From positions 11,696-75,695 of the forward strand of contig JAXMAB010000005.1 in assembly GCA_046350655.1 (NCBI GenBank): 64,000 nt of DNA. The letters run 5' to 3'. The notes beneath the pieces were generated by a model that searched no databases, was not told the DNA's origin, and saw nothing but the letters and a program-made list of their open reading frames with translations. Source of the stretch: Planctomycetota bacterium. GTDB lineage: Bacteria; Planctomycetota; PLA2; JAEUHO01. How positions within the stretch are numbered: the first letter of the stretch is position 1; every line of letters starts with the position of its first letter. The position numbers were made by a program, and so were the translations under genes. Below are positions 39,664 through 61,104 of the stretch, piece after piece.

Positions 39664-39879
39664 CCGCGTAGCCCCCGCGCGGGGACGCGAGGCCCGGCCC
39701 GCCGCGGGACCGCGAGGCCCGGTCCGTCGCGGGTCGCGCGCAGGGAACCGCCCGGACGCCTCGCGCGGTCCGCCGCGGCCCCGGCGACGATGGGGTCGTG
39801 ACGCCCGACGTCCCGCCCCCCGCCGCGCCGCCCCCCGCCGCGCCGCCGGCCGACGCGCGCGCCGCGCGACCCGCGGCCC

Positions 39880-41571
39880 GTGCTCGTGACCGGCGCCACC
39901 GGGTACGTGGGCGGCCGCCTCGTGCCGCGCCTGCTCGAGGCCGGGCATCGCGTGCGCGCGCTCGCGCGCGACCCCCGCAAGCTCGCCGGCCGCGCCTGGA
40001 GCGCCGACCCGGGCCTCGAGATCGCGGCGGGCGACGTGCTCGACGAAGCCTCCCTCGCGGCGGCGTGCCGCGGCTGCCGCGCGGCCTACTGGCTCGTCCA
40101 CTCGATGGACGCGCGCCACGCGGACTTCGCCGAGGCCGACCGTCGGGCCGCCGCGGCGATGGCGCGGGCCGCCGCCGAGGCGGGCCTCGAGCGGATCGTG
40201 TACCTCGGCGGCCTCGGCGAGGACGGCCCCGACCTGTCGCCGCACCTGCGCTCGCGCGCCGAGGTGGCGCGCGTCCTCGCGTCGGGGCCCGTGCCCGTGA
40301 CGACGCTGCGCGCGGGGATGATCCTCGGGTCGGGCAGCGCGTCGTTCGAGATCCTGCGCTACCTCGTGGACCGCCTGCCCGCCATGGTGACGCCGCGCTG
40401 GGTCGGCACGCCGTGCCAGCCCGTCGCGATCCGCGACGTGCTCGGCTGGCTGGTCGGCGTGCTCGACGCGCCGGCCGCGGCGGGCCGCACGTTCGACGTG
40501 GGCGGCCCCGAGGTGCTCACGTACCGGCGGCTCATGGAGGTCTACGCCGAGGAGGCCGGGCTCCCGCGCCGGTGGATCGTCCCCGTGCCGATCCTCTCGC
40601 CGCGGCTCTCGTCGTACTGGATCCACCTGGTCACGCCGGTCCCCGCCGCGCTCGCGCGCCCGCTCGCGGAGGGGCTCCGCAACCCCGTCGTCGCCCACGA
40701 CGACGCGCTGCGCACGCTGCTGCCGCGCGACCTCCTGACCCCGCGCGAGGCGATCCGCCTCGCGCTCGAGCGGTTCCGCCACGACGCGACGGAGACGCAC
40801 TGGACCGACGCGGGGCGCCTCCCCGCGGCGGAGTGGAGCGACCCCGACGACCCGGCGTGGGCCGGCGGCACCGTGCGCGAGGACGTGCGCCGCGTCGTCG
40901 TCGCGGCGCCCATCGAGCGCGCGTGGGCGCCGGTCGCGCGGATCGGCGGGCGCACGGGCTGGTACCACGCGGACGGCCTCTGGGCCCTGCGCGGCCGCCT
41001 CGACCGGCTCGTCGGCGGCGTGGGGCTGCGCCGCGGGCGGCGCCATCCCGTGGACCTGCGCGTCGGCGACGCGCTCGACTTCTGGCGCGTCGTCGAGGTG
41101 GACCCGCCCCGCCGGCTGCGGCTCGTGGCCGAGATGCGCCTGCCGGGCCGCGCGACGCTCTCGATCGACCTGCGCGCGCTCGACGCCGGGCGCACCGAGA
41201 TCGTCTCGACGGCGCGGTTCGCGCCGCGCGGCCTCCTGGGCCTCGCGTACTGGACGGCCGTGGCCCCGATGCACCACGGCGTCTTCCACGGGCTCTTGAA
41301 GGGGCTCGCGAAGGCCGCGCGGGCGCGCGTGCTCGAGGGCCCCGAGGTCGTGCGCGTCCCGCGGCGCGCGAGGCCTCGCGCGGCGGCGGGCGCCCGCGCG
41401 CTGACGGCCGCGGCCGCGACGCCGGGATGCGACGCCGGGATGCGACGGAAGCGTTGCATCGCGCGCGGTCCACGCGACGCGGGCCCGGGACCCCGCGACG
41501 CGCGCACCCTCCGCGGGGTTCAATGGCGCGGGGTCGCGCGACGCGCGCGCAGGTCGAGGGGAGCGCCCCCG
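39880..41571 (+). CDS. NAD(P)-binding NmrA/SDR-like domain fused to DUF2867; 3' end unresolved (no in-frame stop before the next gene's start; the ORF runs on to 43197)
   Basis: GTG start; Rossmann GATGYVGGRLV; C-terminal domain (WxxxD...GGRTGWYH...LRG..D...VGD..DFWRV) DUF2867-like; followed by a low-complexity linker containing a 13-bp tandem duplication. Confidence 0.6.
41418..41443. repeat. Perfect 13-bp tandem duplication (gacgccgggatgc x2) in the linker between the DUF2867 and DUF1549 coding regions
   Basis: Seen directly; 13 is not a multiple of 3, so the duplication (or its absence) changes the downstream frame. Confidence 0.8.
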
Positions 41572-43197
41572 ATGCGTGCGTCGCGCGAGGTCCCGTCGGC
41601 CGCGGCCGGCCGGCGCCGTGCCCGCGCGGTCCCGGCGCTCGCGGTCGCGGCGCTCACGCTGCTGCCGCTCGCGTCGCCGTCGGTCGCGCCGGCGCGCGCC
41701 GCGCCCGAGCCGCCCGCGGCCGCGGCGCCGTGGGCCGCCGCGTCCGCGCGCGTGGACGCGCTCGTCCGCGCGCGGCTCGACGAGCTGGGGATCGCGCCGG
41801 CCCCGCGGTGCAGCGACGAGACGTTCGTGCGCCGCGCCTACCTCGACGTGACGGGGACGCTCCCGCGCCTCGACGAGGTGCGCGCGTTCCTGCGGAACCA
41901 GAAGCCGGACCGCCGCGCCGCGCTCGTCGACGCGCTGCTCGAGCGCGAGGAGTACGCCGACTACCTCGCGATGCGCTGGTGCACGCTCCTGCGGGTCAAG
42001 TCGGAGTTCCCGATCAACCTGTGGCCGAACGCCGTCCAGGCCTACCACCGGTGGATCCGGACCCAGGTCCGCGACAACGTCCCGTGGGACCGGTTCGCGC
42101 GCGCGCTCCTCACGTCGAGCGGCAGCAACGTCCGCGTGCCCGCGGTCAACTTCTACCGCGCGGTGCAGAAGAAGGACCCGCCGACCCTCGCGCGCGCGGT
42201 GGCGCTCACCTTCCTCGGCTGCCGCGCGGAGGCCTGGGAGAAGGCGCGGCTCGACGGCCTCGCGGCGTGCCTCGCGCGCGTGGGGTGGAAGACGACGGCG
42301 GAGTGGAAGGAGGAGATCGTCTTCTTCGACGTCACGAAGCCCGGTCTGCCCTCGACGACGCTCCCGGACGGCACCGTCGTGAAGCTGCCGCCGCGGCAGG
42401 ACCCGCGCGAGGTGCTCGCCGACTGGGTGGTGTCGCCGTCGAACCCGTGGTTCGCGCGGGCGATCGCGAACCGCGTCTGGTCGTGGCTGCTCGGCACCGG
42501 GATCGTGCACGAGCCCGACGACCTCCGGCCCGACAACCCGCCGTCGAACCCGGCGCTGCTCGAGCTCCTCGAGCGCGAGACGGTCGCCGGCGGCTTCGAC
42601 CTGAAGCACCTCTACCGCGTGATCCTCAACTCGCAGACGTACCAGCGCGCGTCGGTGCCGACCACCGACGACCCGCGCGCGGAGGCGGCGTTCGCGCACT
42701 ACCCGGTGCGCCGCCTCGAGGCCGAGGTGCTCATCGACGCCATCAACCAGGTGACCGGCACCGCCGAGGAGTACACGAGCAAGATCCCGGAGCCGTTCAC
42801 CTTCATGCCCGAGGGGCAGCGCTCGATCGCGCTGGCCGACGCCAGCGTGTCGAGCCCGTTCCTCGAGCTCTTCGGCCGCTCCGCGCGGGTGACGGGCCTC
42901 GAGTCGGAGCAGCGCGCCGCGCTGCCGACGGTGGCGCAGCGCCTCCACCTGCTCAACTCGACGCACCTGCGGCGCAAGCTCGAGCAGGGCCCGAACATGG
43001 CGGCGATGCTGAAGCCGACGGCGTGGCCCCGCGACACGTACGACACGCTGTACCTCACGATCCTGTCGCGGTACCCCACCGCGGCCGAGCTCGAGGCCGT
43101 CCGCGCGTACCAGGACGACGTCGGCGGCCTCGCGCGGGCCGGGACGGACCTCGCGTGGGCGCTGATCAACGGCGCCGAGTTCCAGTGCCGCCACTGA
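41572..43197 (+). CDS. DUF1549/DUF1553 (PSD1-type) secreted protein, planctomycete-like, 541 aa
   Basis: GAGGGGAG RBS; signal peptide; FVRRAYLDVTGTLP, EEYADYLAMRWCTLLRV, NLWPNAVQAYHRWI (DUF1549 block), then DUF1553-like C-half (NRVWSWLLGTGIVHEPDDL, NPALLELL). Confidence 0.8.
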   Translation: MRASREVPSAAAGRRRARAVPALAVAALTLLPLASPSVAPARAAPEPPAAAAPWAAASARVDALVRARLDELGIAPAPRCSDETFVRRAYLDVTGTLPRLDEVRAFLRNQKPDRRAALVDALLEREEYADYLAMRWCTLLRVKSEFPINLWPNAVQAYHRWIRTQVRDNVPWDRFARALLTSSGSNVRVPAVNFYRAVQKKDPPTLARAVALTFLGCRAEAWEKARLDGLAACLARVGWKTTAEWKEEIVFFDVTKPGLPSTTLPDGTVVKLPPRQDPREVLADWVVSPSNPWFARAIANRVWSWLLGTGIVHEPDDLRPDNPPSNPALLELLERETVAGGFDLKHLYRVILNSQTYQRASVPTTDDPRAEAAFAHYPVRRLEAEVLIDAINQVTGTAEEYTSKIPEPFTFMPEGQRSIALADASVSSPFLELFGRSARVTGLESEQRAALPTVAQRLHLLNSTHLRRKLEQGPNMAAMLKPTAWPRDTYDTLYLTILSRYPTAAELEAVRAYQDDVGGLARAGTDLAWALINGAEFQCRH

Positions 43198-50564: not shown

Positions 50565-50936
50565 ATGGCCCGCATCCTCGTCCTCGACGACGACGACGAC
50601 GTCCGTCCCGTGCTCGTCGAGCTGCTCACGAGGAAGGGGCACGTCGTCGTCGAGGCGCGCGACGGGCTCGTGGACCTCCGGGCCGTCGGCCCGGTCGACC
50701 TCGCCATCACGGACGTGTTCATGCCGGGCGCGGACGGGCTCGAGTTCCTGATGCGCGCCGGGCGCGAGGCGCCGCGGATGCCGGTCCTGATGCTGACCGG
50801 CGACCCCTTCTTCCGCGGCATGGACGTGCTGACGGTCGGGCGCCAGCTGGGCGCCAAGGCGGTCCTCATGAAGCCGGTGGACGTGGCGGCGCTGCTGTGC
50901 GCGGTGGACGCGGCGCTCGCCGGGTCGGGCGCGTGA
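50565..50936 (+). CDS. Stand-alone response-regulator receiver (CheY-like), 123 aa
   Basis: ILVLDDDDDVR...DLAITDVFMPGADG...LMLTG...KAVLMKPVD: DD, D (phospho-acceptor), T, K positions present; no output domain. Confidence 0.85.
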   Translation: MARILVLDDDDDVRPVLVELLTRKGHVVVEARDGLVDLRAVGPVDLAITDVFMPGADGLEFLMRAGREAPRMPVLMLTGDPFFRGMDVLTVGRQLGAKAVLMKPVDVAALLCAVDAALAGSGA

Positions 50937-51399: not shown

Positions 51400-53097
51400 A
51401 TGCGCGCGACCACGTCGTTCGTGACCCGGATCGGGGCCTGCCTCGTGGCGGCGCTCGCCGCGCTCGCGGGGGCCGGCGGGCCGGCGCGCGCGGACGGCGC
51501 CGACGTCGAGGAGGCGAAGCGCCTGCGGGACGCGTCGGCGGAGGACTGGAACGCGCAGCGGTACGCGGACGCGGCCGCGAAGCTCCGCCGCGCGCTCGCG
51601 ATCTACGCGGCCGCGCCGGACCGGTTCCGCGACGACCTCGCCGTGACGCGGCGGGCCCTCGTGTGGAACCTCGTCAAGTCGGGCGACCTGGAGGCGGCGT
51701 TCGCGCCGTTCGACGCGTTGCTCGTCGCGGGCCGGTCGGAGCCGACCGTGCGGCGCGAGCTGTTCACCGCGTACGGCGCGCTCTGGGAGGCCGCGCGCGA
51801 CGCGGGGTCGCTCGAGGGCGCCCACCAGGTGCTCGACCGCGTGCGCCTGCGGGCGTCGGCCGAACGCGACGCCGGCGTCGCGTCGCAGGTCCTGCACGAC
51901 CTCGCGAGCATCGCGCGCGACCGCGGCGCGCCGGACGAGGCGCTGCGCCTCCTCGAGCAGGCGGTGACCGAGCGGCGGGACGCGAAGGCCTCCACCGAGC
52001 TCGCGTGGAGCCTCAACAACCTCGCCAACCTCCACCTGGCGGAGGGGCGCCTCGACGCGGCCCTCGCCCCGCTCCTCGAGGCGCAGCGCCTCGTGCTCGA
52101 GCAGGGCGCGATCTCGCCCCAGGCGGCGGTGGGCGTGAACACGCGGACCGTCCTCGACCGGCTCGCGGGCGGCGAGACGCCGACCGCGGCGCGGCGCGCG
52201 TGGGTGTGGGACATGGCGGAGGTCGCCGCCGCGAGCGAGGTCGCGACGGTCCACCGGCCCGAGGTGCTGCTGCGGGCGGCGCTGCGCCTCGACGCGAAGG
52301 CGGGCGGGCCGTCCGAGCGGCTCGCGTCGGCCCGGCGGCTCGCGAAGCTGGTCGTGACGCCGACCGCGGCGCCCGTGGAGATCCGCGCCGACCTGCTGCT
52401 GCACGCCGCGACGGTCGCGATCGGCGCGGGCGGGGCGACGGACGCGCTGGGCTGGCTCGCGTCGGTGGACGTGGGCACGGGCCCCGCGGCGGGACACCTC
52501 GCCGCGCGGCGCGGCGTGGCGGTCGCGCTCGCCCGCGCGGCGCAGCAGCAGGGCGGCGAGACGACGGCGGCCGTCGAGGAGGCCCGCGGCGCGCTGAAGG
52601 CGCTGGGCGACCGCGGGCTCCGCGAGGCGAGCCTCGACGCCCTGGTCGTCGCGGCCGACCGCGCGGGGCTGACGTCGCTCGCGGGCTCGATGCGCGAGGA
52701 GCTCGCGGCCTCGAAGCGCGACGGGCAGCCCGGGGCGCGGGGCGCCTCCGCGATGTCGGGGGGCGACGTCGCGAAGTTCCGCGAGCTCGGGCCCCACGAC
52801 CCCGTGTTCGAGCTGCGGGCCGTCGGCATCCGGCTGCGCGTGACCGACCTCCTGACGCAGACGGTCGTCGAGCTCGACGGCACGTGGCAGCCGCAGGCCG
52901 TCGCGGTGCACGGGCTGACGCTCAAGGGCTTCGGGGCGTACGTGCGCCTGGACGGGTTCGCGTACGGCGAGGCCGCGGCCGCGTCGAACGGCGGGCCGAC
53001 GACGTTGACGCTCGACGCGGTCGAGCCGTACCTCGTCGTGCCGGCCGCCACCCCGCTCCGCATCCTCAAGAACGGCGCCGTCACCTACGCCCCCTGA
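51400..53097 (+). CDS. Secreted TPR-like alpha-helical repeat protein (565 aa)
   Basis: Signal peptide MRATTSFVTRIGACLVAALAALAGAGGPARA; TPR-like blocks (ELAWSLNNLANLHLAEGRLDAALAPLLEAQRL). Confidence 0.65.
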   Translation: MRATTSFVTRIGACLVAALAALAGAGGPARADGADVEEAKRLRDASAEDWNAQRYADAAAKLRRALAIYAAAPDRFRDDLAVTRRALVWNLVKSGDLEAAFAPFDALLVAGRSEPTVRRELFTAYGALWEAARDAGSLEGAHQVLDRVRLRASAERDAGVASQVLHDLASIARDRGAPDEALRLLEQAVTERRDAKASTELAWSLNNLANLHLAEGRLDAALAPLLEAQRLVLEQGAISPQAAVGVNTRTVLDRLAGGETPTAARRAWVWDMAEVAAASEVATVHRPEVLLRAALRLDAKAGGPSERLASARRLAKLVVTPTAAPVEIRADLLLHAATVAIGAGGATDALGWLASVDVGTGPAAGHLAARRGVAVALARAAQQQGGETTAAVEEARGALKALGDRGLREASLDALVVAADRAGLTSLAGSMREELAASKRDGQPGARGASAMSGGDVAKFRELGPHDPVFELRAVGIRLRVTDLLTQTVVELDGTWQPQAVAVHGLTLKGFGAYVRLDGFAYGEAAAASNGGPTTLTLDAVEPYLVVPAATPLRILKNGAVTYAP

Positions 53098-53340
53098 CGC
53101 CGAGGGCCGGCGGCGCGCCGCGTCGGCCCCTCCGTCGGGGGCGCCCCGTCGGGACGGGGGCGACGCCGCGCCACGCGCCCGTCGGCCCGCGGCGGGCCCG
53201 CGGGCCCGGCCCCCGCGGCGTCCGCGGGCCCGGCGGCGGGCGCGGACCGCGCCGCGCCCGGGGCCGCGGCAAGCCCCCCCTCCTCCCTCCGCCGCCTGCG
53301 GCGGCCGCCGGGACCGGCCCCGGCGGCGGGACCACCGAGG

Positions 53341-53375
53341 TCTTATATAACTGTACGTTTGTATAGTTGACTTAT
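53341..53375. promoter_or_regulatory. AT-rich island (tcttatataactgtacgtttgtatagttgactta) in an otherwise ~80% GC intergenic region, 64-98 bp upstream of the multiheme cytochrome operon; contains the near-palindrome ACTGTA-N6-TATAGT (CTGT-N8-ATAG) and TTGACT
   Basis: Seen directly; the strongest local compositional anomaly in the window. Confidence 0.5.
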
Positions 53376-53438: not shown

Positions 53439-55004
53439 ATGAGCGCCCGGATCCTCGCCCTCGTCGTCGCCGCCGCGGTGGCGGCCGTCCTCGGCTTCGG
53501 CTGGCTCGTCGCGCCCGGCGCCGCGGCGCCGCCCCGCGACGACCCGCGGGCCCACCTGCCGGTCCGCCCGGCGCCGACGGACCACGCGCCGTTCTTCACG
53601 GCCCCCTTCGCCGACGGGCCCGCGGTGACGGCCGCGTGCCTGCGCTGCCACGAGGACGCCGCGGACGAGGTCCGCGCCACGACGCACTGGACGTGGGAGG
53701 GGGCCCACGCGAAGGACCCGGCGACGGGGGCGGACGTCGCGCTCGGCAAGCGGAACGGGATCAACAACTTCTGCATCGGCGTGGCGGCGAACTGGCCCCG
53801 CTGCACGTCGTGCCACGCCGGGTACGGCTGGAAGGACGACGGCTTCCTCGCCCGCGCGCGCGCGACGGACGTGGACTGCCTCGTGTGCCACGACACCTCG
53901 GGCCTGTACCAGAAGGACCCCGCGGGCGCGGGCGCCCCGGCCGCGGGCACCGACCTCCTCGCGGTCGCGCGCAGCGTCGGCCGCTCGAGCCGGGCGACGT
54001 GCGGCGCCTGCCACTTCAAGGGCGGCGGGGGCGACGGCGTGAAGCACGGCGACCTCGACGAGACCATGACCTTCCCGGCGGAGCGCGTCGACGTCCACAT
54101 GGGCCGGCACGGCCTCGCGTGCGCCGACTGCCACCGGACCGAGCACCACCGCGTCGCCGGCCGCCTCCTGCCCCCCACCGAGGACGCGGCGACGCGCGTG
54201 CGGTGCACCGACTGTCACGCCGCGCGGCCGCACGGCGACGCGCGGCTCGACGCGCACACCGCGACCGTCGCGTGCGAGACGTGCCACGTGCCGCGGTTCG
54301 CGGCCGAGACCCCGACGAAGCTCTTCTGGGACTGGTCGAAGGCCGGACGCGACGGCGAGCCGGAGGCGGTCGCCGAGGCCGTCCGGCAGGAGATCCTCGC
54401 GGGCGGCGAGGCCGCGCGCCACGTCGCGCCGGAGATCGTCGCGCTGCTGCGGCGCGTCGGCGACGACCCCGACCTCCACGTCCACTACGACAAGAAGAAG
54501 GGCCTGTTCCTCGTCGGTCGGCGGCAGGTGCCGGTCTACCGCTGGTACGACGGGACCACCGCGCGCCACGTCCCGGGGCAGCGGTGGGACGGCCCCGAGC
54601 CCCTGCCGGTGAACGCGCCGCAGGGCGCCGTCCGCGACCCGCGCGCGAAGATCCACCCGTTCAAGGTGCACCGCGGCGTCCAGCCGTTCGACGCGTCGGC
54701 CCGCCACCTGCTCGTGCCGCACACGTTCGGCCCGGGCGGCTACTGGAGCGCCTTCGACTGGGAGCGCGCGCTGCGGACCGGCGCCGCGGCGTCGGGCGTG
54801 CCCTACAGCGGCGAGCGCACCTGGATCGCGACGGAGATGTGGTGGCCGCAGGAGCACATGGTGGCGCCGAGGACCGACGCCCTGCGGTGCGTCGACTGCC
54901 ACGGCGACGGCGGGCGGATGGACTGGCGGGCCCTCGGCTACCCGGGCGACCCCGCCGTCGCCGGCGGGCGCGAGCAGGTGGGCGCGACGGGAGGTGCGCG
55001 ATGA
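53439..55004 (+). CDS. Periplasmic octaheme c-type cytochrome (8 CxxCH), octaheme tetrathionate-reductase-like family, 521 aa
   Basis: GGAGG RBS; signal peptide; CLRCH, CTSCH, CLVCH, CGACH, CADCH, CTDCH, CETCH, CVDCH. Confidence 0.85.
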   Translation: MSARILALVVAAAVAAVLGFGWLVAPGAAAPPRDDPRAHLPVRPAPTDHAPFFTAPFADGPAVTAACLRCHEDAADEVRATTHWTWEGAHAKDPATGADVALGKRNGINNFCIGVAANWPRCTSCHAGYGWKDDGFLARARATDVDCLVCHDTSGLYQKDPAGAGAPAAGTDLLAVARSVGRSSRATCGACHFKGGGGDGVKHGDLDETMTFPAERVDVHMGRHGLACADCHRTEHHRVAGRLLPPTEDAATRVRCTDCHAARPHGDARLDAHTATVACETCHVPRFAAETPTKLFWDWSKAGRDGEPEAVAEAVRQEILAGGEAARHVAPEIVALLRRVGDDPDLHVHYDKKKGLFLVGRRQVPVYRWYDGTTARHVPGQRWDGPEPLPVNAPQGAVRDPRAKIHPFKVHRGVQPFDASARHLLVPHTFGPGGYWSAFDWERALRTGAAASGVPYSGERTWIATEMWWPQEHMVAPRTDALRCVDCHGDGGRMDWRALGYPGDPAVAGGREQVGATGGAR

Positions 55005-57010
55005 GCCGTCGAGCCCTCCTCCTCGCCGCGGTCCTCGTCGCGGGCGCGGGCGTCGCGCGGGCCGGCAGCCCGATGCACCCCGACGTCCGCCTCCTCGACG
55101 ACGCCGGGGACGGCGTGCTCGAGAGCGGGCGGCCCGTGTCGCCCGCGCGGACCTGCGGGCAGTGCCACGACGTCGAGTTCATCGAGCGCCACGACTTCCA
55201 CGCGACGCTGGGCGCCGACGAGACGATGGCGCCGGGCACGGTCCCGGGCGGGCGCCCCTGGGACACGAGCGCGGGCCCGTTCGGGCGCTGGGACCCGGCG
55301 ACGAACCGCCGCCTCGCCCTCGACGACGACGCGCGCTTCGACCTCGGCGTCGCCGACTGGGTGCGGACCGTCGGGCAACGGCACGTCGGCGGCGGGCCCG
55401 CGCGGCTCGGCCGCGACGGCCGCCCGCTCGACGGCGACGGGCCGCGCGTCGAGACGCACGCCCTGGACCCGGCCAGCGGCCGGCCCGTCCCGTGGGACTG
55501 GGCGGCCTCGGGGACCGCGGAGCTCGACTGCTTCCTCTGCCACGTCCCCGGCGCGCGCGCGGACCTGCGCCGCGAGACGCTCGCCGCCGGACGGTTCCGC
55601 TGGGCGGCCACCGCGAGCCTCGTCGGCACCGGGCTCGCGGCCGCCGACGGCGACGGGTTCCGCTGGGTGCGCGAGGCGTTCACGAAGCACGGCACCGCGG
55701 ACCGGACGCGTCTGCCCCTCGGCCGCCCGACCGCGGCGGCCTGCGGCGCGTGCCACCTCGACCCGGACGCCGGCGCGAAAGGGACGTTCGTCGCCCGCGA
55801 CCCGCGCGCGGGCGGCCAGGTGGTCGCGCCCGGCCGCGTGGCCGACGCGGCGCTCGACCTCGCCGACAAGGACGCGCAGACGCAGCCCTTCGACGTCCAC
55901 GCCGCGCGGCTCGTCGGGTGCACCGACTGCCACCACAGCCTGAACGACCCCGCGCGCTTCTCCGAGGCCGCGGGCAGCCGGCCCGGGCACCTCGCCTACG
56001 ACGCGCGGCGGCTCGGGGTCGGCGACTTCGTGCGCACGCCGAGCCACGACCTCGCGAAGGGCACCTCGTCGCGCCCGCACGCCGCCGAAGGGCTCGACGG
56101 GACGGGGCGGCGCTGCGACGCCTGCCACGACGTCGCCGACGACCACGGGCGCTGGCTCCCCGCCGTCGGCCGGCACCTGCAGACGCTCTCGTGCGAGGCC
56201 TGCCACGTCCCCCGCGTCCCGACGGCGTCGGTCGAGCAGACGGACTGGACCGTGCTCGACGCCTCGGGCGGGCCCGTCGTCGCCCACCGCGGCGTCGAGG
56301 GCGCGATCGACGACCCGGCCGCGCTCCTCACGGGGTACGAACCCGTGCTCCTGCCGCGCCGCGACGCGGACGGCCGGACGCGGTACGTCCCCCACGCGCT
56401 CTCGACCACGTGGACGTGGGTCGGCGGCGTGCCGGAGCGCCCCGTGCGCCCGTTCGACCTCCGGGCCGCCTGGTTCGGCGCCGACGGCGCGCCGCACCCC
56501 GACGTCGTCGCCGCCCTCGACGCGGACCACGACGGCCGCCTCGCCGCGACGGAGCTCGCGCTCGACACGCCCGCGAAGGCGGCGGCCGTCCGCGCGCGCC
56601 TCGAGGCCGTCGGCATCGCCGCGCCGCGCATCGTCGGCACCGTGGAGCCGACGGGGCTCCACCACGGCGTCGTCGCCGCGGGGGCCGTCCGACGGTGCGA
56701 GACGTGCCACGCGTCGGACGGGCGGCTCGCCCGTCCGACGGTCGTGGCGACGCGGGTCCCCGCCGGCGCCGTCGCGACGTTCGTCGCGCACCGGTCGGTC
56801 TCGCTCGGCGGGACGCTCTCGGGCCGCGACGGCGCGCCGCTCGTCCACACGCCCTCGACCGCGGCGGCGGGCCGCTTCGTCCCCCGCAGGGACGACGCGG
56901 GCGTGCTCGACCTCGTGGGACTGCTCGCGTTCGTGGGCACCGCGCTCGGCGTCGCCGGGCACGCCCTCGCGCGGGTCGTGGCGCACCGACGCGCCGGGAG
57001 GACGTCATGA
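55001..57010 (+). CDS. Heptaheme c-type cytochrome with C-terminal transmembrane anchor, 669 aa; start overlaps the upstream stop (ATGA)
   Basis: Signal peptide; CGQCH, CFLCH, CGACH, CTDCH, CDACH, CEACH, CETCH; C-terminal VLDLVGLLAFVGTALGVAGHAL helix. Confidence 0.85.
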   Translation: MSRRALLLAAVLVAGAGVARAGSPMHPDVRLLDDAGDGVLESGRPVSPARTCGQCHDVEFIERHDFHATLGADETMAPGTVPGGRPWDTSAGPFGRWDPATNRRLALDDDARFDLGVADWVRTVGQRHVGGGPARLGRDGRPLDGDGPRVETHALDPASGRPVPWDWAASGTAELDCFLCHVPGARADLRRETLAAGRFRWAATASLVGTGLAAADGDGFRWVREAFTKHGTADRTRLPLGRPTAAACGACHLDPDAGAKGTFVARDPRAGGQVVAPGRVADAALDLADKDAQTQPFDVHAARLVGCTDCHHSLNDPARFSEAAGSRPGHLAYDARRLGVGDFVRTPSHDLAKGTSSRPHAAEGLDGTGRRCDACHDVADDHGRWLPAVGRHLQTLSCEACHVPRVPTASVEQTDWTVLDASGGPVVAHRGVEGAIDDPAALLTGYEPVLLPRRDADGRTRYVPHALSTTWTWVGGVPERPVRPFDLRAAWFGADGAPHPDVVAALDADHDGRLAATELALDTPAKAAAVRARLEAVGIAAPRIVGTVEPTGLHHGVVAAGAVRRCETCHASDGRLARPTVVATRVPAGAVATFVAHRSVSLGGTLSGRDGAPLVHTPSTAAAGRFVPRRDDAGVLDLVGLLAFVGTALGVAGHALARVVAHRRAGRTS

Positions 57011-57657
57011 GCGGTCGCGTCCGGCTCTACTCGGTCTACGAGCGGCTGTGGCACTGGGCCCAGGCCGGCACCGTGCTCCTCCTCCTGGCCACGGGCCTCG
57101 AGCTGCGCGGGACGTTCGCGCTCCTCGGCTTCGCGGCGGCCGTCCGCGTGCACGAGGTCGCCGGCTTCGTGCTGCTCGGCAACGCGGCGCTCGGGCTGTT
57201 CTACTTCCTGACGAGCGGCGCGATCCGCCAGTACGTCGGCGCGCCGCGCGACTTCGCGACGCTCGCCGTGCGGCAGGCCCGCTACTACCTCCGCGGGATC
57301 TTCCGCGGCGAGCCGCACCCCGTCGCCCGCACGAAGGAGGCGCGGCTCAACCCGCTCCAGCAGGTCGTGTACGTCGGCATCCTGAACGTGCTCCTGCCGT
57401 GGCAGCTGCTCACCGGCCTCGCGATGTGGGGCCTCGACCGCTGGCCCGCGCTCGAGGCGGCCGTCGGCGGGCTCGTCACGCTCGCCCCGCTCCACGCACT
57501 GGGCGCGTGGCTCTTCGCGACGTTCGTCGTCGCGCACGTCTACCTGACGACCACGGCGGGCCCGCGACCGGTGTCGGGCCTCGTCGCGATGGTGACCGGC
57601 TGGGAGGAGGAGGCGCCCCGCGCGGCGGCGCCCGCCCCGAAGGAGGTGGTGTCGTGA
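57007..57657 (+). CDS. Membrane b-type cytochrome (Ni/Fe-hydrogenase / formate dehydrogenase gamma / PhsC-like), 216 aa; ATGA overlap
   Basis: RVRLYSVYERLWHWAQAGTVLLLLATG (conserved ERxxHW start), 4 TM helices with His ligand candidates (VRVHEVAG, LHALGAWLFATFVVAHVY). Confidence 0.8.
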   Translation: MSGRVRLYSVYERLWHWAQAGTVLLLLATGLELRGTFALLGFAAAVRVHEVAGFVLLGNAALGLFYFLTSGAIRQYVGAPRDFATLAVRQARYYLRGIFRGEPHPVARTKEARLNPLQQVVYVGILNVLLPWQLLTGLAMWGLDRWPALEAAVGGLVTLAPLHALGAWLFATFVVAHVYLTTTAGPRPVSGLVAMVTGWEEEAPRAAAPAPKEVVS

Positions 57658-58175
57658 AGCGCCCCGGCCCCGGCCGCTACTGGAACCCCTACGTCGGCGG
57701 CGCCGTGCTCGGCACCGTCCTGTTCGTCTCCTTCCTGCTGACGGGCCACGGCCTCGGCGCCTCCGGCGGCGTCGCCCGCGTCGTCGTCGCCGCGCAGAAG
57801 GTCGTCGCCCCCGACCACGTCGACCGCACCGCGCTGCTGGCCGAGCTCGGCGGCGGCACGCGCGACCCGCTCGACGCGTGGGTCGTGGTCGGCATCCTCG
57901 GCGTCGCGCTCGGCGGGGCCGCCTCCGGCCTCCTCGCGGGGCGCTGGCGCCTCGAGACGTTCCGCGGTCCCCGCGTCGCGGTGCGCACGCGCTGGCTCCT
58001 CGCCCTCGCCGGCGGGACGGTCATGGGCTTCGCCGCGCGCCTCGCCCGCGGCTGCACGTCGGGCCAGGCCCTGACCGGCGGCGCGACGCTCGCCGTCGGC
58101 TCGTGGGTCTTCATGTTCGCGGTGTTCGCGGGCGGCTACCTCGTCGCGTGGCCGCTGCGCCGGCTCTGGAAGTGA
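57654..58175 (+). CDS. YeeE/YedE-family sulfur-compound transporter, N-terminal half-protein (173 aa); GTG start overlapping the upstream stop (GTGA)
   Basis: GxxxGxxGxC motif FAARLARGCTSGQALTGGA; 4 TM helices. Confidence 0.75.
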   Translation: MKRPGPGRYWNPYVGGAVLGTVLFVSFLLTGHGLGASGGVARVVVAAQKVVAPDHVDRTALLAELGGGTRDPLDAWVVVGILGVALGGAASGLLAGRWRLETFRGPRVAVRTRWLLALAGGTVMGFAARLARGCTSGQALTGGATLAVGSWVFMFAVFAGGYLVAWPLRRLWK

Positions 58176-58182
58176 GGCCGCC

Positions 58183-59505
58183 ATGCCCCTCGCCCTCGTG
58201 CCCCTCGCCCTCGCCCCCCTCCACCTCGACGGCGCCCTCGTCCCGCTGCTGCTCGGCGCCGCGTTCGGCGCGACGCTCGAGCGCTCCGGCTTCGGCGACG
58301 CCCGTCGCCTCGCCGCCCAGTTCACGCTGACCGAGATGCGCGTCCTCAAGGTGATGTTCACCGCGATCGTGACGTGCCTCCTGTGGATCACGCTCGCGAC
58401 GACGGCCGGCTGGATGGACTTCGGCGCGCTCGCGGTGAACCCCACGTACCTCGGGACCGCCGTCGTCGGCGGCCTCCTGCTCGGCATGGGCTTCGTCGTG
58501 GGCGGGTACTGCCCCGGCACCTCCATCGTCTCGGCGGCGACGGGGAAGGTGGACGGGATGTTCTTCCTCGGCGGCGTCGGCGCCGGCGTCTTCCTGTTCG
58601 GCGAGGCGGGCGGCGCGTTCCGCACCTTCTACGACACGGCCGGCGCGCTCGGCCGCGTGACGCTCCCCGACGTGCTCGGGCTCCCGTTCGGCGTCGTGGT
58701 CGCCCTCGTCGTGCTGATGGCGGCGGGGATGTTCGCGGGCGCCGAGGCGATCGAGCGGCGCTTCGGACCCGGCCCCGCGCCCGCCGACGCGAGGCCCGGC
58801 GGCCCGCGCCCCGCGCGCTCCGGCGGCCTCGCGCGCGCCGGCGCCCTGGCCGCGCTGGTCGCGGTCCTCGTCGCGTTCGCGTCGCCCGCCGCCGGCGGCG
58901 GCGCGGTCGCCGCGCGTGTCGGGCTCCTGCGCCCCGCGCACGACGCCACGCTCGCGTCGCGGTCCGTCCACGCCGACCCCGTCGAGGTGGCGGGCCTCCT
59001 CCACCGCGAGCTCGGCGGCAAGCCCGCGCGGTTCGACCTCGTGCTCCTCGACGTGCGCGACCCGTCGTCGTGGAACCGCTTCCACCTCGAGGACGCGCGC
59101 TCGACGACCCTCGACCGCCTCCGCGGCGACGAAGGGCGCGCGTGGGCCGACCCGCGCCACGCGACGTCGATCAAGGTCGTGCTGGGCGACGACGAGGCGC
59201 GGGCCGAGGAGGCCTGGCGCCTCCTCGCGGCGCACGGCGCGAAGCACGTCTACGTCCTCGCGGGCGGCGTGAACCTCTGGCTCGACGTCTTCCGCGACGG
59301 GAGGATGGACGCCGCGCCGGCCCGCGGCGCCGCCGCGACGGACACGCTGCGGCACGCCTTCCCCGCGTCGCTCGGGGCCCGGTGGCCGTTCGCGCGGCCC
59401 GACGAGGCGACGTACCGGCGGATCCTCGCGACGAAGGCCCGGGCGTTCGCGCCGCGCGTGAAGCCCGTCACGAAGTCCGTCGCGGCCTCCGGCGGCTGCG
59501 GCTGA
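58183..59505 (+). CDS. YeeE/YedE C-terminal half fused to a rhodanese-like domain (440 aa); the rhodanese lacks the catalytic Cys; the protein ends -SGGCG
   Basis: GFVVGGYCPGTS YeeE motif; rhodanese fold DLVLLDVRDPSSWNRFHLEDA ... KHVYVLAGGVNLW (Leu-Ala where the Cys loop is expected); C-terminal ...KSVAASGGCG*. Confidence 0.75.
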   Translation: MPLALVPLALAPLHLDGALVPLLLGAAFGATLERSGFGDARRLAAQFTLTEMRVLKVMFTAIVTCLLWITLATTAGWMDFGALAVNPTYLGTAVVGGLLLGMGFVVGGYCPGTSIVSAATGKVDGMFFLGGVGAGVFLFGEAGGAFRTFYDTAGALGRVTLPDVLGLPFGVVVALVVLMAAGMFAGAEAIERRFGPGPAPADARPGGPRPARSGGLARAGALAALVAVLVAFASPAAGGGAVAARVGLLRPAHDATLASRSVHADPVEVAGLLHRELGGKPARFDLVLLDVRDPSSWNRFHLEDARSTTLDRLRGDEGRAWADPRHATSIKVVLGDDEARAEEAWRLLAAHGAKHVYVLAGGVNLWLDVFRDGRMDAAPARGAAATDTLRHAFPASLGARWPFARPDEATYRRILATKARAFAPRVKPVTKSVAASGGCG

Positions 59506-59526
59506 CCGCGGGCCGGGCCCGGCCGG

Positions 59527-61104
59527 TCACTCCTTGCCGGCGGTCACGAACGGCCGGTCGTCGGTGCGGAACGGCGACGCGGGCAGCCCCGTGGGCCCGA
59601 CGAGCGTCGCGGCCTCCGGGGCGTCGGCCCACGCGTACCGCACCGCCACGGGGTGCGGCACCTTCGGCGAGCTCACGACCACCGTGTCCCCCTCGATCCG
59701 CGCGCGCGCCGGCACGAACTCGCCCTTGGCGCTCGCGACGGCGAACCCCTCCGGGTCGCGCCCGTCCGACGTGGCCAGCCCGGCGCCCGCCCGGTCGAAC
59801 TCGAGGACGACCCGCCCCTTGTCGACGCGGTGCGCCCGGAGCGTGGGGCCCGACGGCTCGACGTCGGCCTGCCCGTAGTCGTCGTGCCGCGCGATCAGCG
59901 CGAGCCGGCGGCCGAGCTCCTGCTTGTTCTTCGGGTGGATGTCCGCGTCCTCGCCGATGTCGATCGCGACGGCGAGGCCGACGTGGGGCAGCGTGGCCGC
60001 CGTGAGCCGCTGCGCCTCGCGCAGCTCCGCCCACGGGCTCGCGAGCCCCGACGGCGCGGGCCGGCCGAAGTTCGCGAGCTGCACCACGTGGAACGGCAGG
60101 TCGTCGCGGCCGAACGCGCGCCGCCACGCCTTCACGAGCGTCGGCAGGAGCACGCGGTACTGCGCCGCGCGGGGCGCGTTGCTCTCGCCCTGGTACCAGA
60201 CGACGCCGCGGACCGAGAGCGGCACCAGCGGCGCCACCATCCCGTTCCACAGGGAGCCCGGGAACCCGAGGCCCGCCCGCGGGTCGTCCGGCTCGAGCGG
60301 CTCCGGCGGCGGCGTGCGCCCGGCGCGGCGGTCGCTGTCGGCCTCCTGGCGCCACTTCCGCCACGCCTTCTCGAACTTGGCCTGCGCCGCCGCGCGGTCG
60401 TAGCCCGCGAGCGGCTTCGTGACGCGCGCCCACATCCCGAGGAGCGCGGGCTCGCCCTCGACCGCGTCCGCGGGCGTCCAGGCCTCCGCGAGCGTGCCCC
60501 CCACCGACGACACCACGAGCCCGACGGGGACGCGCAGCGACGCGTGGAGGTCGCGCCCGAAGAACCACGCGGTCGCCGAGAAGCCGCCCACGGTGTCGGG
60601 GCGCGCGACGACCCACGAGCCCGCGGCCTCGCGCGCGGGCGCGGCGGCGGCACGGTACGTCGTGGTGAACATCCGCACCGACGGCAGGTCGGCGGCCTTG
60701 CGCTCGGCCTCCGCGTCGCGCACGCCCGCGACGGTCATCTGCATGTTCGACTGGCCCGAGCACAACCACACCTCGCCGACGAGCACGTCCGCGGCGACGG
60801 CGCGCGTCCGCCCGACGGCGACCAGCTCGAACGGCCCGCCCGCCGGCACGGCGTCGAGGGTGACCTGCCAGCGTCCGCCCGCGGCCGTCACGGCCTTCGC
60901 CGTGCGGTCCGCGAACGTCACGACGACCTCCTCGCCCGCGGACGCGGTGCCCCACACGACGAGCGGCCGGTCGCGCTGGAGCACCGCGTGGTCGGTGAAG
61001 ACCGGCGCGAGCGCGACGTCGGCGCGCGCCGGCGCGGCGAGGGCGGCCGCGACGGGCGCGGCGAGGGCGACGACCGCGAGCACGGGAGCGAGGGCGCGCA
61101 GCAT
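59527..61104 (-). CDS. Sialate O-acetylesterase-family (SASA/DUF303, SGNH-like) carbohydrate esterase, 525 aa
   Basis: Signal peptide; GEVWLCSGQSNMQM catalytic-Ser block; VVWYQGESN second block; two-domain layout. Confidence 0.8.
   Translation of the reverse strand: MLRALAPVLAVVALAAPVAAALAAPARADVALAPVFTDHAVLQRDRPLVVWGTASAGEEVVVTFADRTAKAVTAAGGRWQVTLDAVPAGGPFELVAVGRTRAVAADVLVGEVWLCSGQSNMQMTVAGVRDAEAERKAADLPSVRMFTTTYRAAAAPAREAAGSWVVARPDTVGGFSATAWFFGRDLHASLRVPVGLVVSSVGGTLAEAWTPADAVEGEPALLGMWARVTKPLAGYDRAAAQAKFEKAWRKWRQEADSDRRAGRTPPPEPLEPDDPRAGLGFPGSLWNGMVAPLVPLSVRGVVWYQGESNAPRAAQYRVLLPTLVKAWRRAFGRDDLPFHVVQLANFGRPAPSGLASPWAELREAQRLTAATLPHVGLAVAIDIGEDADIHPKNKQELGRRLALIARHDDYGQADVEPSGPTLRAHRVDKGRVVLEFDRAGAGLATSDGRDPEGFAVASAKGEFVPARARIEGDTVVVSSPKVPHPVAVRYAWADAPEAATLVGPTGLPASPFRTDDRPFVTAGKE

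Follow-up and report, generated by a model that had tools for sequence, protein, structure and literature searches.

A conserved cassette and its closest described relatives

The octahaem cytochrome c Otr was crystallised in 2004, and its native function is still called 'cryptic' or never established in papers of 2023-2026 (including PMC12949373). The catalytic site of Otr has been defined as the haem-2 motif taken together with a Lys and a Cys residue (bioRxiv 10.1101/2023.04.20.537704), and the protein of Shewanella oneidensis (SO_4144, PDB 1SP3, NCBIfam TIGR04315) is described as soluble and periplasmic and is thought to be fed via CymA (PMC12949373). The present analysis concerns an Otr gene located in a 64,000-nt stretch of the genome of a Planctomycetota bacterium (assembly GCA_046350655.1, contig JAXMAB010000005.1), hereafter called the window. 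At positions 53439-59505 of the window, on the + strand, this gene opens a cassette of five genes (g1-g5), which encode the Otr-family cytochrome (g1), a heptahaem Otr paralog (g2), a dihaem cytochrome b (g3) and, split between g4 and g5, a channel of the YeeE type, the g5 part of which continues into a Cys-less rhodanese domain and a C-terminal -GGCG arm. The gene set is conserved in genomes of several phyla, and we tentatively propose that its products make up a membrane-bound complex, in which sulfur carried on the arm would be reduced and the product imported.

Described relatives exist for most of these parts. MmcA, the seven-haem relative of Otr that belongs to the Rnf complex of Methanosarcina, has been left without the haem-2 motif, Lys and Cys and serves as an electron conduit (bioRxiv 10.1101/2023.04.20.537704). 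All intermediates of the Sox pathway are carried on the Cys of the C-terminal 'VTIGGC' swinging arm of SoxY (PMC5336275, PMC11237559), and tetrathionate turns this arm Cys into an S-thiosulfonate (PMC5336275). YeeE/TsuA is an assimilatory thiosulfate importer; according to StYeeE's crystal structure, the N-terminus faces outwards and the C-terminus inwards, helix H7 inverts the two halves, and Cys91 and Cys293 are essential (PMC7449682). PmpB and PmpA were proposed to constitute a heterodimeric YeeE-like channel with one essential Cys per half, while for the YeeE-like SoxT the Dahl group has proposed a sulfur relay, leading from the SoxY Cys along the channel-lining Cys residues (PMC11582611).

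The five genes lie on the + strand throughout, as was found by open reading frame (ORF) analysis of the window, and they are tightly packed: ATGA overlaps join g1 to g2 and g2 to g3, a GTGA overlap joins g3 to g4, a gap of 7 nt separates g4 from g5, and a GGAGG-type ribosome-binding site is located 6-10 nt 5' of every one of the five starts. They form one operon-like unit and are presumably co-translated. The window has a G+C content of ~77-78%, and spurious frames are abundant in its mechanical ORF listing; a chance cluster of such high-GC ORFs was considered and is ruled out by GC3 (G+C at third codon positions) values of 0.96-0.98 for the g1 and g5 frames, by domain matches in all five genes and by their conservation. 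An earlier reading of the same DNA, made from the letters alone (the sequence-only reading), had described a five-gene overlapped operon, and its coordinates, its ATGA, ATGA and GTGA overlaps and its 7-nt gap are all confirmed here. The parts it listed (an octahaem cytochrome, a membrane-anchored heptahaem cytochrome, a quinone-pool cytochrome b and a split YeeE/YedE channel) are supported as well, with Otr, Ni_hydr_CYTB, Sulf_transp and Rhodanese all recovered above cut-offs by domain searches. Co-translation, which it called almost certain, is rated here as a presumption. Together the two c-type cytochromes bear 15 haem motifs CxxCH, eight in g1 and seven in g2. Non-haem Cys residues of the whole operon are limited to the invariant C112 of g1, C134 of g4, C110 and C439 of g5, and to the non-conserved C65 of g5.

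Relatives of the cassette were collected by scanning genomes for a pattern, each species being represented by a single genome; at least 565 loci with a relative of g2 were returned, and the best 80 of these were inspected. The loci come mostly from metagenome-assembled genomes (MAGs), in which a label such as 'archaeon' may stem from faulty binning. Among the best 80, Chloroflexota (Anaerolineae and their relatives) and Planctomycetota predominate, and one locus each bears the label Actinomycetota, Thermodesulfobacteriota, Deltaproteobacteria or 'archaeon'. The last one (L024, DATKXY010000198.1) carries a complete cassette, which may reflect a binning error or horizontal transfer, given its similarity to the bacterial loci. 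A Planctomycetia MAG (L001) is the nearest relative of the window, with 89-92% protein identity. Six segments, namely g1, g2, g3, g4, the N-terminal channel part of g5 (g5N) and its C-terminal rhodanese-arm part (g5C), are colinear in 59 of the 60 species genomes with sufficient flank, and the neighbourhood of the octahaem gene, whose conservation the sequence-only reading had put up for checking, is kept to this extent. The channel is present in every cassette examined; 63 of 66 loci have the rhodanese-arm part fused to g5N, and the others encode it in a separate gene. When 1.84 billion representative proteins were searched exhaustively by HMMER with residues 217-440 of g5, the rhodanese-arm family proved to be small, at 286 clusters, and 118 of the 150 best representatives end with GGCG(G), most of the others looking like fragments. 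Wherever a genomic context was retrieved for stand-alone members of the family, including those of 31-32% identity, it was the Otr cassette, one further contig being too short to tell.

The same data bear on a reading, according to which the cytochromes constitute a nitrite or hydroxylamine reductase module and the YeeE and rhodanese genes are merely adjacent to it. Such a reading draws on the in vitro activities of Otr, which are highest with nitrite and hydroxylamine; however, the colinearity in 59 of 60 genomes, the overlaps and fusions between genes, and the finding of the arm family nowhere but beside Otr, rule out chance adjacency, and no nitrogen-cycle genes recur near the cassette in the inspected loci, which leaves this explanation scarcely credible. 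Literature on Otr or octahaem cytochromes combined with YeeE or SoxY yielded no description of the cassette, in agreement with the sequence-only reading, which was aware of no characterised system with this gene set. Three features appear to be undescribed, namely the way in which the parts are combined, the family of rhodanese-GGCG arms and an inactive Otr paralog in the role of a wire. Every single part belongs to a known superfamily, and the cassette is not a new category.

Multihaem cytochromes and cytochrome b

The g1 product (53439-55004, + strand, 521 residues) has its CxxCH motifs at positions 67, 122, 147, 188, 228, 256, 279 and 484, scores 507.3 bits against TIGR04315 (curated cut-off 375) and matches Shewanella Otr along the entire sequence (1SP3; E=4e-135). 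Elements of the catalytic site are encoded within nt 53745-53816 of the + strand and comprise G103-K104 with the Lys ligand, the non-haem C112 in NNFC and the haem-2 motif C122-T-S-C-H126. K104, C112 and the haem-2 motif are invariant in the 31 homologs of one of our alignments (A3) and are retained in 80-81 of the 81-82 genomic tblastn matches. By these features, g1 belongs to the Otr family and has the complete catalytic-site set. In common with Shewanella Otr it has eight CxxCH motifs, the Lys that ligates haem 2 and the Cys of the catalytic site. Unlike that soluble protein, g1 begins with a hydrophobic segment of 19 residues (residues 5-23, by hydropathy) and, unlike Shewanella Otr as described, it is accompanied by a haem wire, a cytochrome b, a channel and an arm of its own. 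All of the top 120 matches of g1 are nearer relatives of it than Shewanella Otr is. The sequence-only reading had looked for g1 in a 'sulfur-oxyanion-reducing clade' of octahaem cytochromes; this placement has to be dropped, as it presumes a function never established for Otr (PMC12949373).

The g2 product (55001-57010, + strand, 669 residues) has seven CxxCH motifs, no further Cys and a signal-like N-terminus, while its C-terminus bears a transmembrane (TM) anchor followed by the basic tail AHRRAGRTS (56903-56980, + strand; TM segment 635-660 by hydropathy, helix 634-668 in the AlphaFold2 model). No specific family was found for this protein, and its score against the MmcA model TIGR04314 is 29.1 bits, below the cut-off of 250. 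A Foldseek search of the PDB with the AlphaFold model (predicted local distance difference test, pLDDT, 84) matched Otr 1SP3 alone (E=3.5e-7), and hhalign aligned g2 with the g1 family (98.3% probability, E=1.4e-14), pairing haems 4-8 of g1 with haems 3-7 of g2. When the N-terminal modules were aligned in the same way, 'DWVRTVGQRHVGGGP' of g2 faced 'NWPRCTSCHAGYGW' of g1, the cysteines of haem 2, the Lys and the Cys being lost in g2. Because g2 aligns to the g1 family and yet retains neither the haem-2 motif nor the Lys nor the Cys, it can be classed as an Otr paralog stripped of the active site. Like g2, MmcA has seven haems and is devoid of all three of these elements; g2, for its part, is much longer, possesses a C-terminal TM anchor, is usually fused to cytochrome b and has no Rnf operon around it, no Rnf genes being found near the cassette in the window or in the inspected loci. 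By analogy with MmcA, g2 is best read as an electron conduit.

The g3 product (57007-57657, + strand, 216 residues) scores 80.9 bits against PF01292 (Ni_hydr_CYTB; gathering score 30.1), and its H16, H49, H163 and H177 are invariant in 78 sequences. Among the described cytochromes b it is most like PhsC, its score against the PhsC equivalog model being 120.9 bits at a cut-off of 204, with the alignment covering PhsC positions 55-245. Cytochromes b of the PhsC/HydC/FdnI type are, like g3, four-His dihaem proteins that link the quinone pool to an outward-facing redox partner. Unlike PhsC, g3 is without the first helix, and its partner is a c-type cytochrome instead of a molybdoenzyme; the anchor of g2 may fill the place of this absent helix. 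A single ORF covers both g2 and g3 in 65 of 78 loci, the anchor helix of g2 running straight into cytochrome b, and Geobacter CbcL, a fusion of a multihaem cytochrome with cytochrome b, offers a system for comparison. A fusion of another kind is found in L082 and L083 (8001-10547), where an 848-residue, 12-haem protein consists of the whole Otr joined to the four-haem C-terminal part and the TM anchor of g2, with no separate g2 present. The one exception to the colinearity, and the sole inspected locus without Otr and YeeE (L065, 7470-13508), encodes a g2-like protein carrying additional N-terminal sequence and, as a separate protein, a cytochrome b, both located between two small NrfB/c3-like multihaem cytochromes. 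Because the pair occurs there with other multihaem cytochromes, g2 and g3 seem to represent a reusable quinol module.

The split channel and the rhodanese-arm protein

The channel is encoded by g4 (57654-58175, + strand, 173 residues), a C-terminal-half YeeE/PmpA-like subunit matching positions 175-309 of the Sulf_transp profile, and by residues 1-194 of g5 (58183-58764, + strand), an N-terminal-half YeeE/PmpB-like subunit with an H7-like helix (profile positions 2-201; helices of the AlphaFold2 model). The whole of g5 spans 58183-59505 on the + strand, has 440 residues and ends with SGGCG followed by the stop. Scores against Sulf_transp are 70.5 bits for g4 and 43.0 bits for g5, both above the gathering score of 27, whereas the TsuA equivalog model gave 39.7 and 13.3 bits, respectively, at a cut-off of 400. 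C134, the sole Cys of g4, lies in the motif RGCTSG (nt 58047-58064), which was found in 68 of 73 loci, most of the five misses being g4 matches cut by a contig end. C110 of g5 lies in GGYCPGTS (nt 58501-58524), is invariant in the alignment and was found in 66 of 68 loci. The former residue is equivalent to Cys293 of StYeeE and to the Cys of PmpA, the latter to Cys91 of StYeeE. Compared to YeeE/TsuA, SoxT and PmpAB, g4 and g5N have no equivalent of Cys22 and no YeeD/TusA gene adjacent to them in the window.

Instead of a single YeeE polypeptide with H7 joining the halves, two genes are found here, and, as in PmpA/PmpB, they encode two half-size subunits side by side with one conserved Cys each. 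The subunits differ from the PmpA/PmpB type, which has ~130 residues, no H7 and no extra domains, in that g4 reaches 173 residues, and g5, with its 440 residues, adds to the PmpB part an H7-like helix, another TM helix and a rhodanese domain with an arm, both predicted to be external. On profile matches and Cys positions, g4 and g5N are assigned to the Sulf_transp superfamily as PmpA/PmpB-like proteins; in the explanation that we tentatively prefer, they would form a heterodimeric channel in the PmpA/PmpB fashion. Both the Otr and the YeeE families include selenocysteine (Sec) variants, and that of YeeE sits at the GUxSG position (selenoproteome review). This position is the equivalent of C134, which suggests that C134 of g4 is chemically active.

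Behind the channel part, g5 proceeds, always on the + strand, with an Arg-rich linker (residues 191-218, six Arg) and an extra TM helix (219-240 by hydropathy and charge, helix 213-233 in the AlphaFold2 model), which are encoded together at 58753-58902, and then with a rhodanese-homology domain (residues 260-373; 58960-59301). A C-terminal extension with the invariant P406 (59302-59487) is packed on the rhodanese in the model (pLDDT 88-97 over residues 371-430) and has no family match, and the protein terminates with the arm SGGCG (59488-59502), in which G438-C439-G440 are invariant. The rhodanese fold is recognised by PF00581 (37.4 bits, cut-off 22.2) and by Foldseek (probability 1.0 to rhodaneses). 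The position of the catalytic Cys falls into the loop VVLGDDEARA (residues 332-341, nt 59176-59205) and is occupied by Gly in the window and by Ser in most homologs, the domain being without Cys altogether; the best PDB sequence match, the Anabaena Alr3790 domain, is likewise Cys-less at this loop. A catalytic rhodanese is ruled out by the absent Cys and the acidic loop. The sequence-only reading correctly called the rhodanese Cys-less but misplaced the site, as VLAGGVN, which it had taken for the active-site loop, is the ordinary C-terminal 'vyvLdGGxxxW' motif. Its 'sulfur-binding rhodanese-like module' is not borne out either: with an acidic Ser/Gly-Asp-Glu loop, the domain is probably a scaffold, with the tail as the candidate for sulfur binding.

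A terminal -GGCG (occasionally -GGCGG) was seen in all 62 full-length genomic homologs and in 41 of 41 aligned database homologs (alignment A2), at identities down to 38%. In the model, the last five residues of g5 have pLDDT <50, and the preceding 180 residues are confident; because the low-confidence end follows a confidently modelled domain, the tail is probably flexible on a rigid scaffold. The stand-alone rhodanese-arm genes, of ~200-215 residues, start at the extra TM helix and have, at the N-terminus, a basic n-region, a helix of strong hydrophobicity and 'GQPT', an arrangement that we interpret as a signal anchor. From the StYeeE topology, the Arg-rich linker and these signal-anchor N-termini of the stand-alone forms, the linker is predicted to be cytoplasmic, and the rhodanese domain with its tail to be outside the cytoplasm, beside the cytochromes. 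Given the invariance of the tail, its low model confidence and its predicted extracytoplasmic location, the earlier suggestion that -GGCG is a flexible sulfur-carrying tail is plausible.

In SoxY, as in g5, the Cys belongs to a Gly-Gly-Cys-Gly(-Gly) stretch at the extreme C-terminus of an exported protein (PMC11237559). The g5 protein differs from SoxY in its rhodanese-fold scaffold, in the lack of SoxZ and in being membrane-tethered or fused to a channel; no gene for a SoxZ partner occurs among the recurrent neighbours of the cassette. The tail gave no match to the SoxY domain PF13501 or to the NCBIfam SoxY models in Pfam, NCBIfam or PDB searches, and homology of the g5 tail to SoxY was rejected on the null results of phmmer and hmmscan; the protein is not a SoxY. 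The resemblance between the two appears to be confined to the level of a short motif.

Proposed sulfur relay, rival readings and significance

As the best explanation, one in which our doubt somewhat exceeds our confidence, the five gene products would assemble into one membrane-bound complex of an electron module and a sulfur module, reducing arm-bound sulfur and importing the product. In such a complex, g3 would exchange electrons with the (mena)quinone pool, where quinol would be oxidised, and the electrons would pass along the haem wire of g2, anchored beside g3, to the catalytic Otr (g1) at the outer face of the membrane. The sulfur module would consist of the two-subunit channel made of g4 and g5N, with one essential Cys per half lining the pore, and of the non-catalytic rhodanese scaffold, which the extra TM helix of g5 would put outside the cell, so that Cys439 on the flexible -GGCG end could act as a SoxY-like swinging arm. 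An extracellular S-S compound (tetrathionate, another polythionate or polysulfide) would react with the arm thiol to form a Cys-S-S(n)-X adduct, and Otr, with haem 2, Lys104 and Cys112, would reduce this adduct with the quinol-derived electrons. The product, thiosulfate or sulfane sulfur, would then be freed at the outer channel Cys (C134 of g4), or delivered to it, and move on via g5 C110 to the cytoplasm.

The host phyla are known for their use of menaquinone. The reductive direction, with tetrathionate, polythionate or polysulfide as the starting compound, is favoured, because the tetrathionate/thiosulfate couple (+198 mV; PMC8528874) lies far above menaquinol and because tetrathionate reacts spontaneously with an arm of the SoxY type. 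Two published observations are counted in favour of the reductive complex: divergent soxY and soxZ genes adjoin otr in lucinid symbionts, and a marine acidobacterium showed a 36-fold rise in otr transcripts once tetrathionate had been added to sediment (PMC8528874). An Acidobacteriota (Holophagae) MAG locus also carries the cassette, with otr cut off at the contig edge. An attempt to tie the cassette to the published induction failed on this truncated acidobacterial otr and on the quantitative PCR primers of Flieder, which do not occur together in any locus.

The sulfur context of the cassette in other genomes is likewise counted in favour. A regulator of the ArsR/SmtB family (~110 residues, with the motifs 'LHAxIC' and 'SRHL') is encoded on the same strand directly 5' of the Otr gene in 53 loci (e.g. 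L009, 1965-2303, and L005, 5323-5655); it scores above the family cut-off, and its best specific matches, TsoR and the sulfite-sensing BigR, are both below theirs. In 5-6 Chloroflexota loci (L004, L021, L023, L031, L032 and L048; e.g. L021, 4930-7818) the cassette is adjoined by genes for a type III sulfide:quinone reductase (SQR-III; 649 bits, cut-off 525), a 251-residue protein, a TusE/DsrC-family protein and a DsrE2-like protein. Neither the ArsR-type regulator nor SQR-III, TusE/DsrC or DsrE2 is found in the window. On one metagenomic contig (L111, 2325-2936), a ThiF-family (E1-like) gene stands on the same strand directly 5' of the Otr gene, which may be a coincidence.

These neighbours can also be read in the opposite direction. 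Otr would then act in a SoxXA-like manner, oxidatively conjugating thiosulfate (or sulfide/polysulfide) to the arm Cys, electrons would run from g1 via g2 and g3 to quinone, and sulfane sulfur from the arm would cross the channel, to be oxidised or assimilated in the cytoplasm, as has been proposed for the passage from SoxYZ to SoxT. The analogy with SoxY and the published proposal of a SoxY-to-channel relay speak for this direction, as do the SQR-III, DsrE2 and TusE neighbours in 5-6 loci, a regulator of the ArsR type known from sox/sHdr regulation and the reversibility of a dihaem cytochrome b. We nevertheless hold it to be unlikely, since thiosulfate oxidation (~+198 mV) into menaquinone would be strongly uphill, the cassette has no SoxB/SoxZ-like partner, and the thiosulfate oxidase activity of Otr in vitro is very low.

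The regulator and the Sec variants also touch on selenium (or tellurium), with Otr reducing selenite or a similar compound and the YedE-like channel and the Cys arm importing or trafficking selenium. There is a weak match of g4 to the YedE/FdhT selenium model (33.8 bits), Sec variants are known in both the Otr and YeeE families, that of YeeE lying at the C134 equivalent, and the regulator of other loci resembles TsoR of a selenoprotein operon. Every selenium-model score is, however, far below its cut-off, no Sec codon occurs at the key Cys positions in the 80 loci, neither selD/selA nor a YedF gene is among the recurrent neighbours of the cassette, and what does recur beside it are genes of sulfur relay; selenium handling is thus considered very improbable.

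Presence of the channel in every cassette examined also suits an assimilatory sulfur-scavenging importer, whose cytochromes would merely supply external reducing power in order to free or reset the sulfur on the arm and channel Cys residues, much as DsbD does. The assimilatory role of YeeE/TsuA (PMC7449682), the mostly heterotrophic way of life of the hosts and the small, strictly conserved set of Cys residues are in line with such an importer. Fifteen haems and a dihaem cytochrome b are, on the other hand, a costly outfit for stoichiometric thiol reduction, the catalytic haem site of Otr is fully conserved, and we regard this possibility as decidedly unlikely.

The reductive complex itself has a number of points weighing against it. 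In vitro activities of Shewanella Otr with tetrathionate and thiosulfate are very low compared to those with nitrite and hydroxylamine, and deletion of otr in Shewanella ANA-3 left tetrathionate respiration unaffected. Respiratory reductases do not usually come with an importer for their product, a dihaem cytochrome b such as g3 can run in either direction, and no TusA/YeeD-type cytoplasmic acceptor is encoded near the cassette within the window. Furthermore, no SoxY homology of the g5 tail or C-terminal extension was detected by phmmer against the PDB or by hmmscan against NCBIfam, the location of the arm follows from a predicted topology, and the comparison was drawn from the best 80 of at least 565 loci. 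The poor tetrathionate activity of Shewanella Otr in vitro fits a carrier-bound substrate, without demonstrating one, and the analysis as a whole suggests that Otr may work on protein-bound sulfur. A more far-reaching version is that the native substrate of Otr is a sulfur adduct on a protein Cys arm (rhodanese-GGCG, or divergent SoxYZ in Gammaproteobacteria), a four-Cys relay from C112 via C439 and C134 to C110 coupling external quinone-linked redox chemistry to vectorial sulfur import; this version we consider doubtful.

As to the surrounding DNA, the flanks of the cassette in the window hold genes of unrelated function. An AT-rich island, TTATATAACTGTACGTTTGTATAGTTGACTTAT (53338-53375, + strand), located ~65-100 nt 5' of the g1 start, contains TTGAC(T/A) and an imperfect inverted repeat and is kept in L001 and L002 but not in L003; a sigma-70 consensus scan gave no site in the region 5' of g1. 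This element is probably the promoter/operator of the window's clade, which is without the ArsR-type regulator gene. Two GC-rich hairpins (59500-59560, no strand assigned) lie between the convergent 3' ends of g5 and a minus-strand SASA-type esterase gene, the RNAfold energy of the stretch 59496-59560 being -31.3 kcal/mol, and they may form a bidirectional terminator. Upstream of the operon, the + strand encodes a stand-alone CheY-like receiver domain (50566-50936) and a secreted TPR-like protein (51400-53097); in other genomes, neither showed a link with the cassette. Farther away, a single long stop-free frame (39802-43197) comprises, by eye, an NAD-dependent epimerase-like N-terminal part, a signal-like segment and a planctomycete DUF1549/DUF1553-like region, and it probably represents two genes in one frame.

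The cassette bears on two questions, the role of Otr and the membrane passage of carrier-bound sulfur. As to the first, the conserved partnership of Otr with a sulfur channel and a SoxY-like Cys arm leads to the testable hypothesis that the substrate of Otr is carrier-bound sulfur, which, if true, would explain why free tetrathionate serves Otr poorly in vitro. As to the second, the cassette is a natural fusion bearing on the way in which sulfur on periplasmic carrier arms crosses the membrane via proteins of the YeeE/SoxT type and, should the proposed relay be true, it would be the first hand-off from a carrier arm to a YeeE channel hard-wired in one polypeptide. The loci, at least 565 at one genome per species, include those of abundant wastewater and sediment Anaerolineae and Planctomycetota, and metagenome surveys, in which otr is used as a 'tetrathionate reductase' marker, may mislabel a different process.

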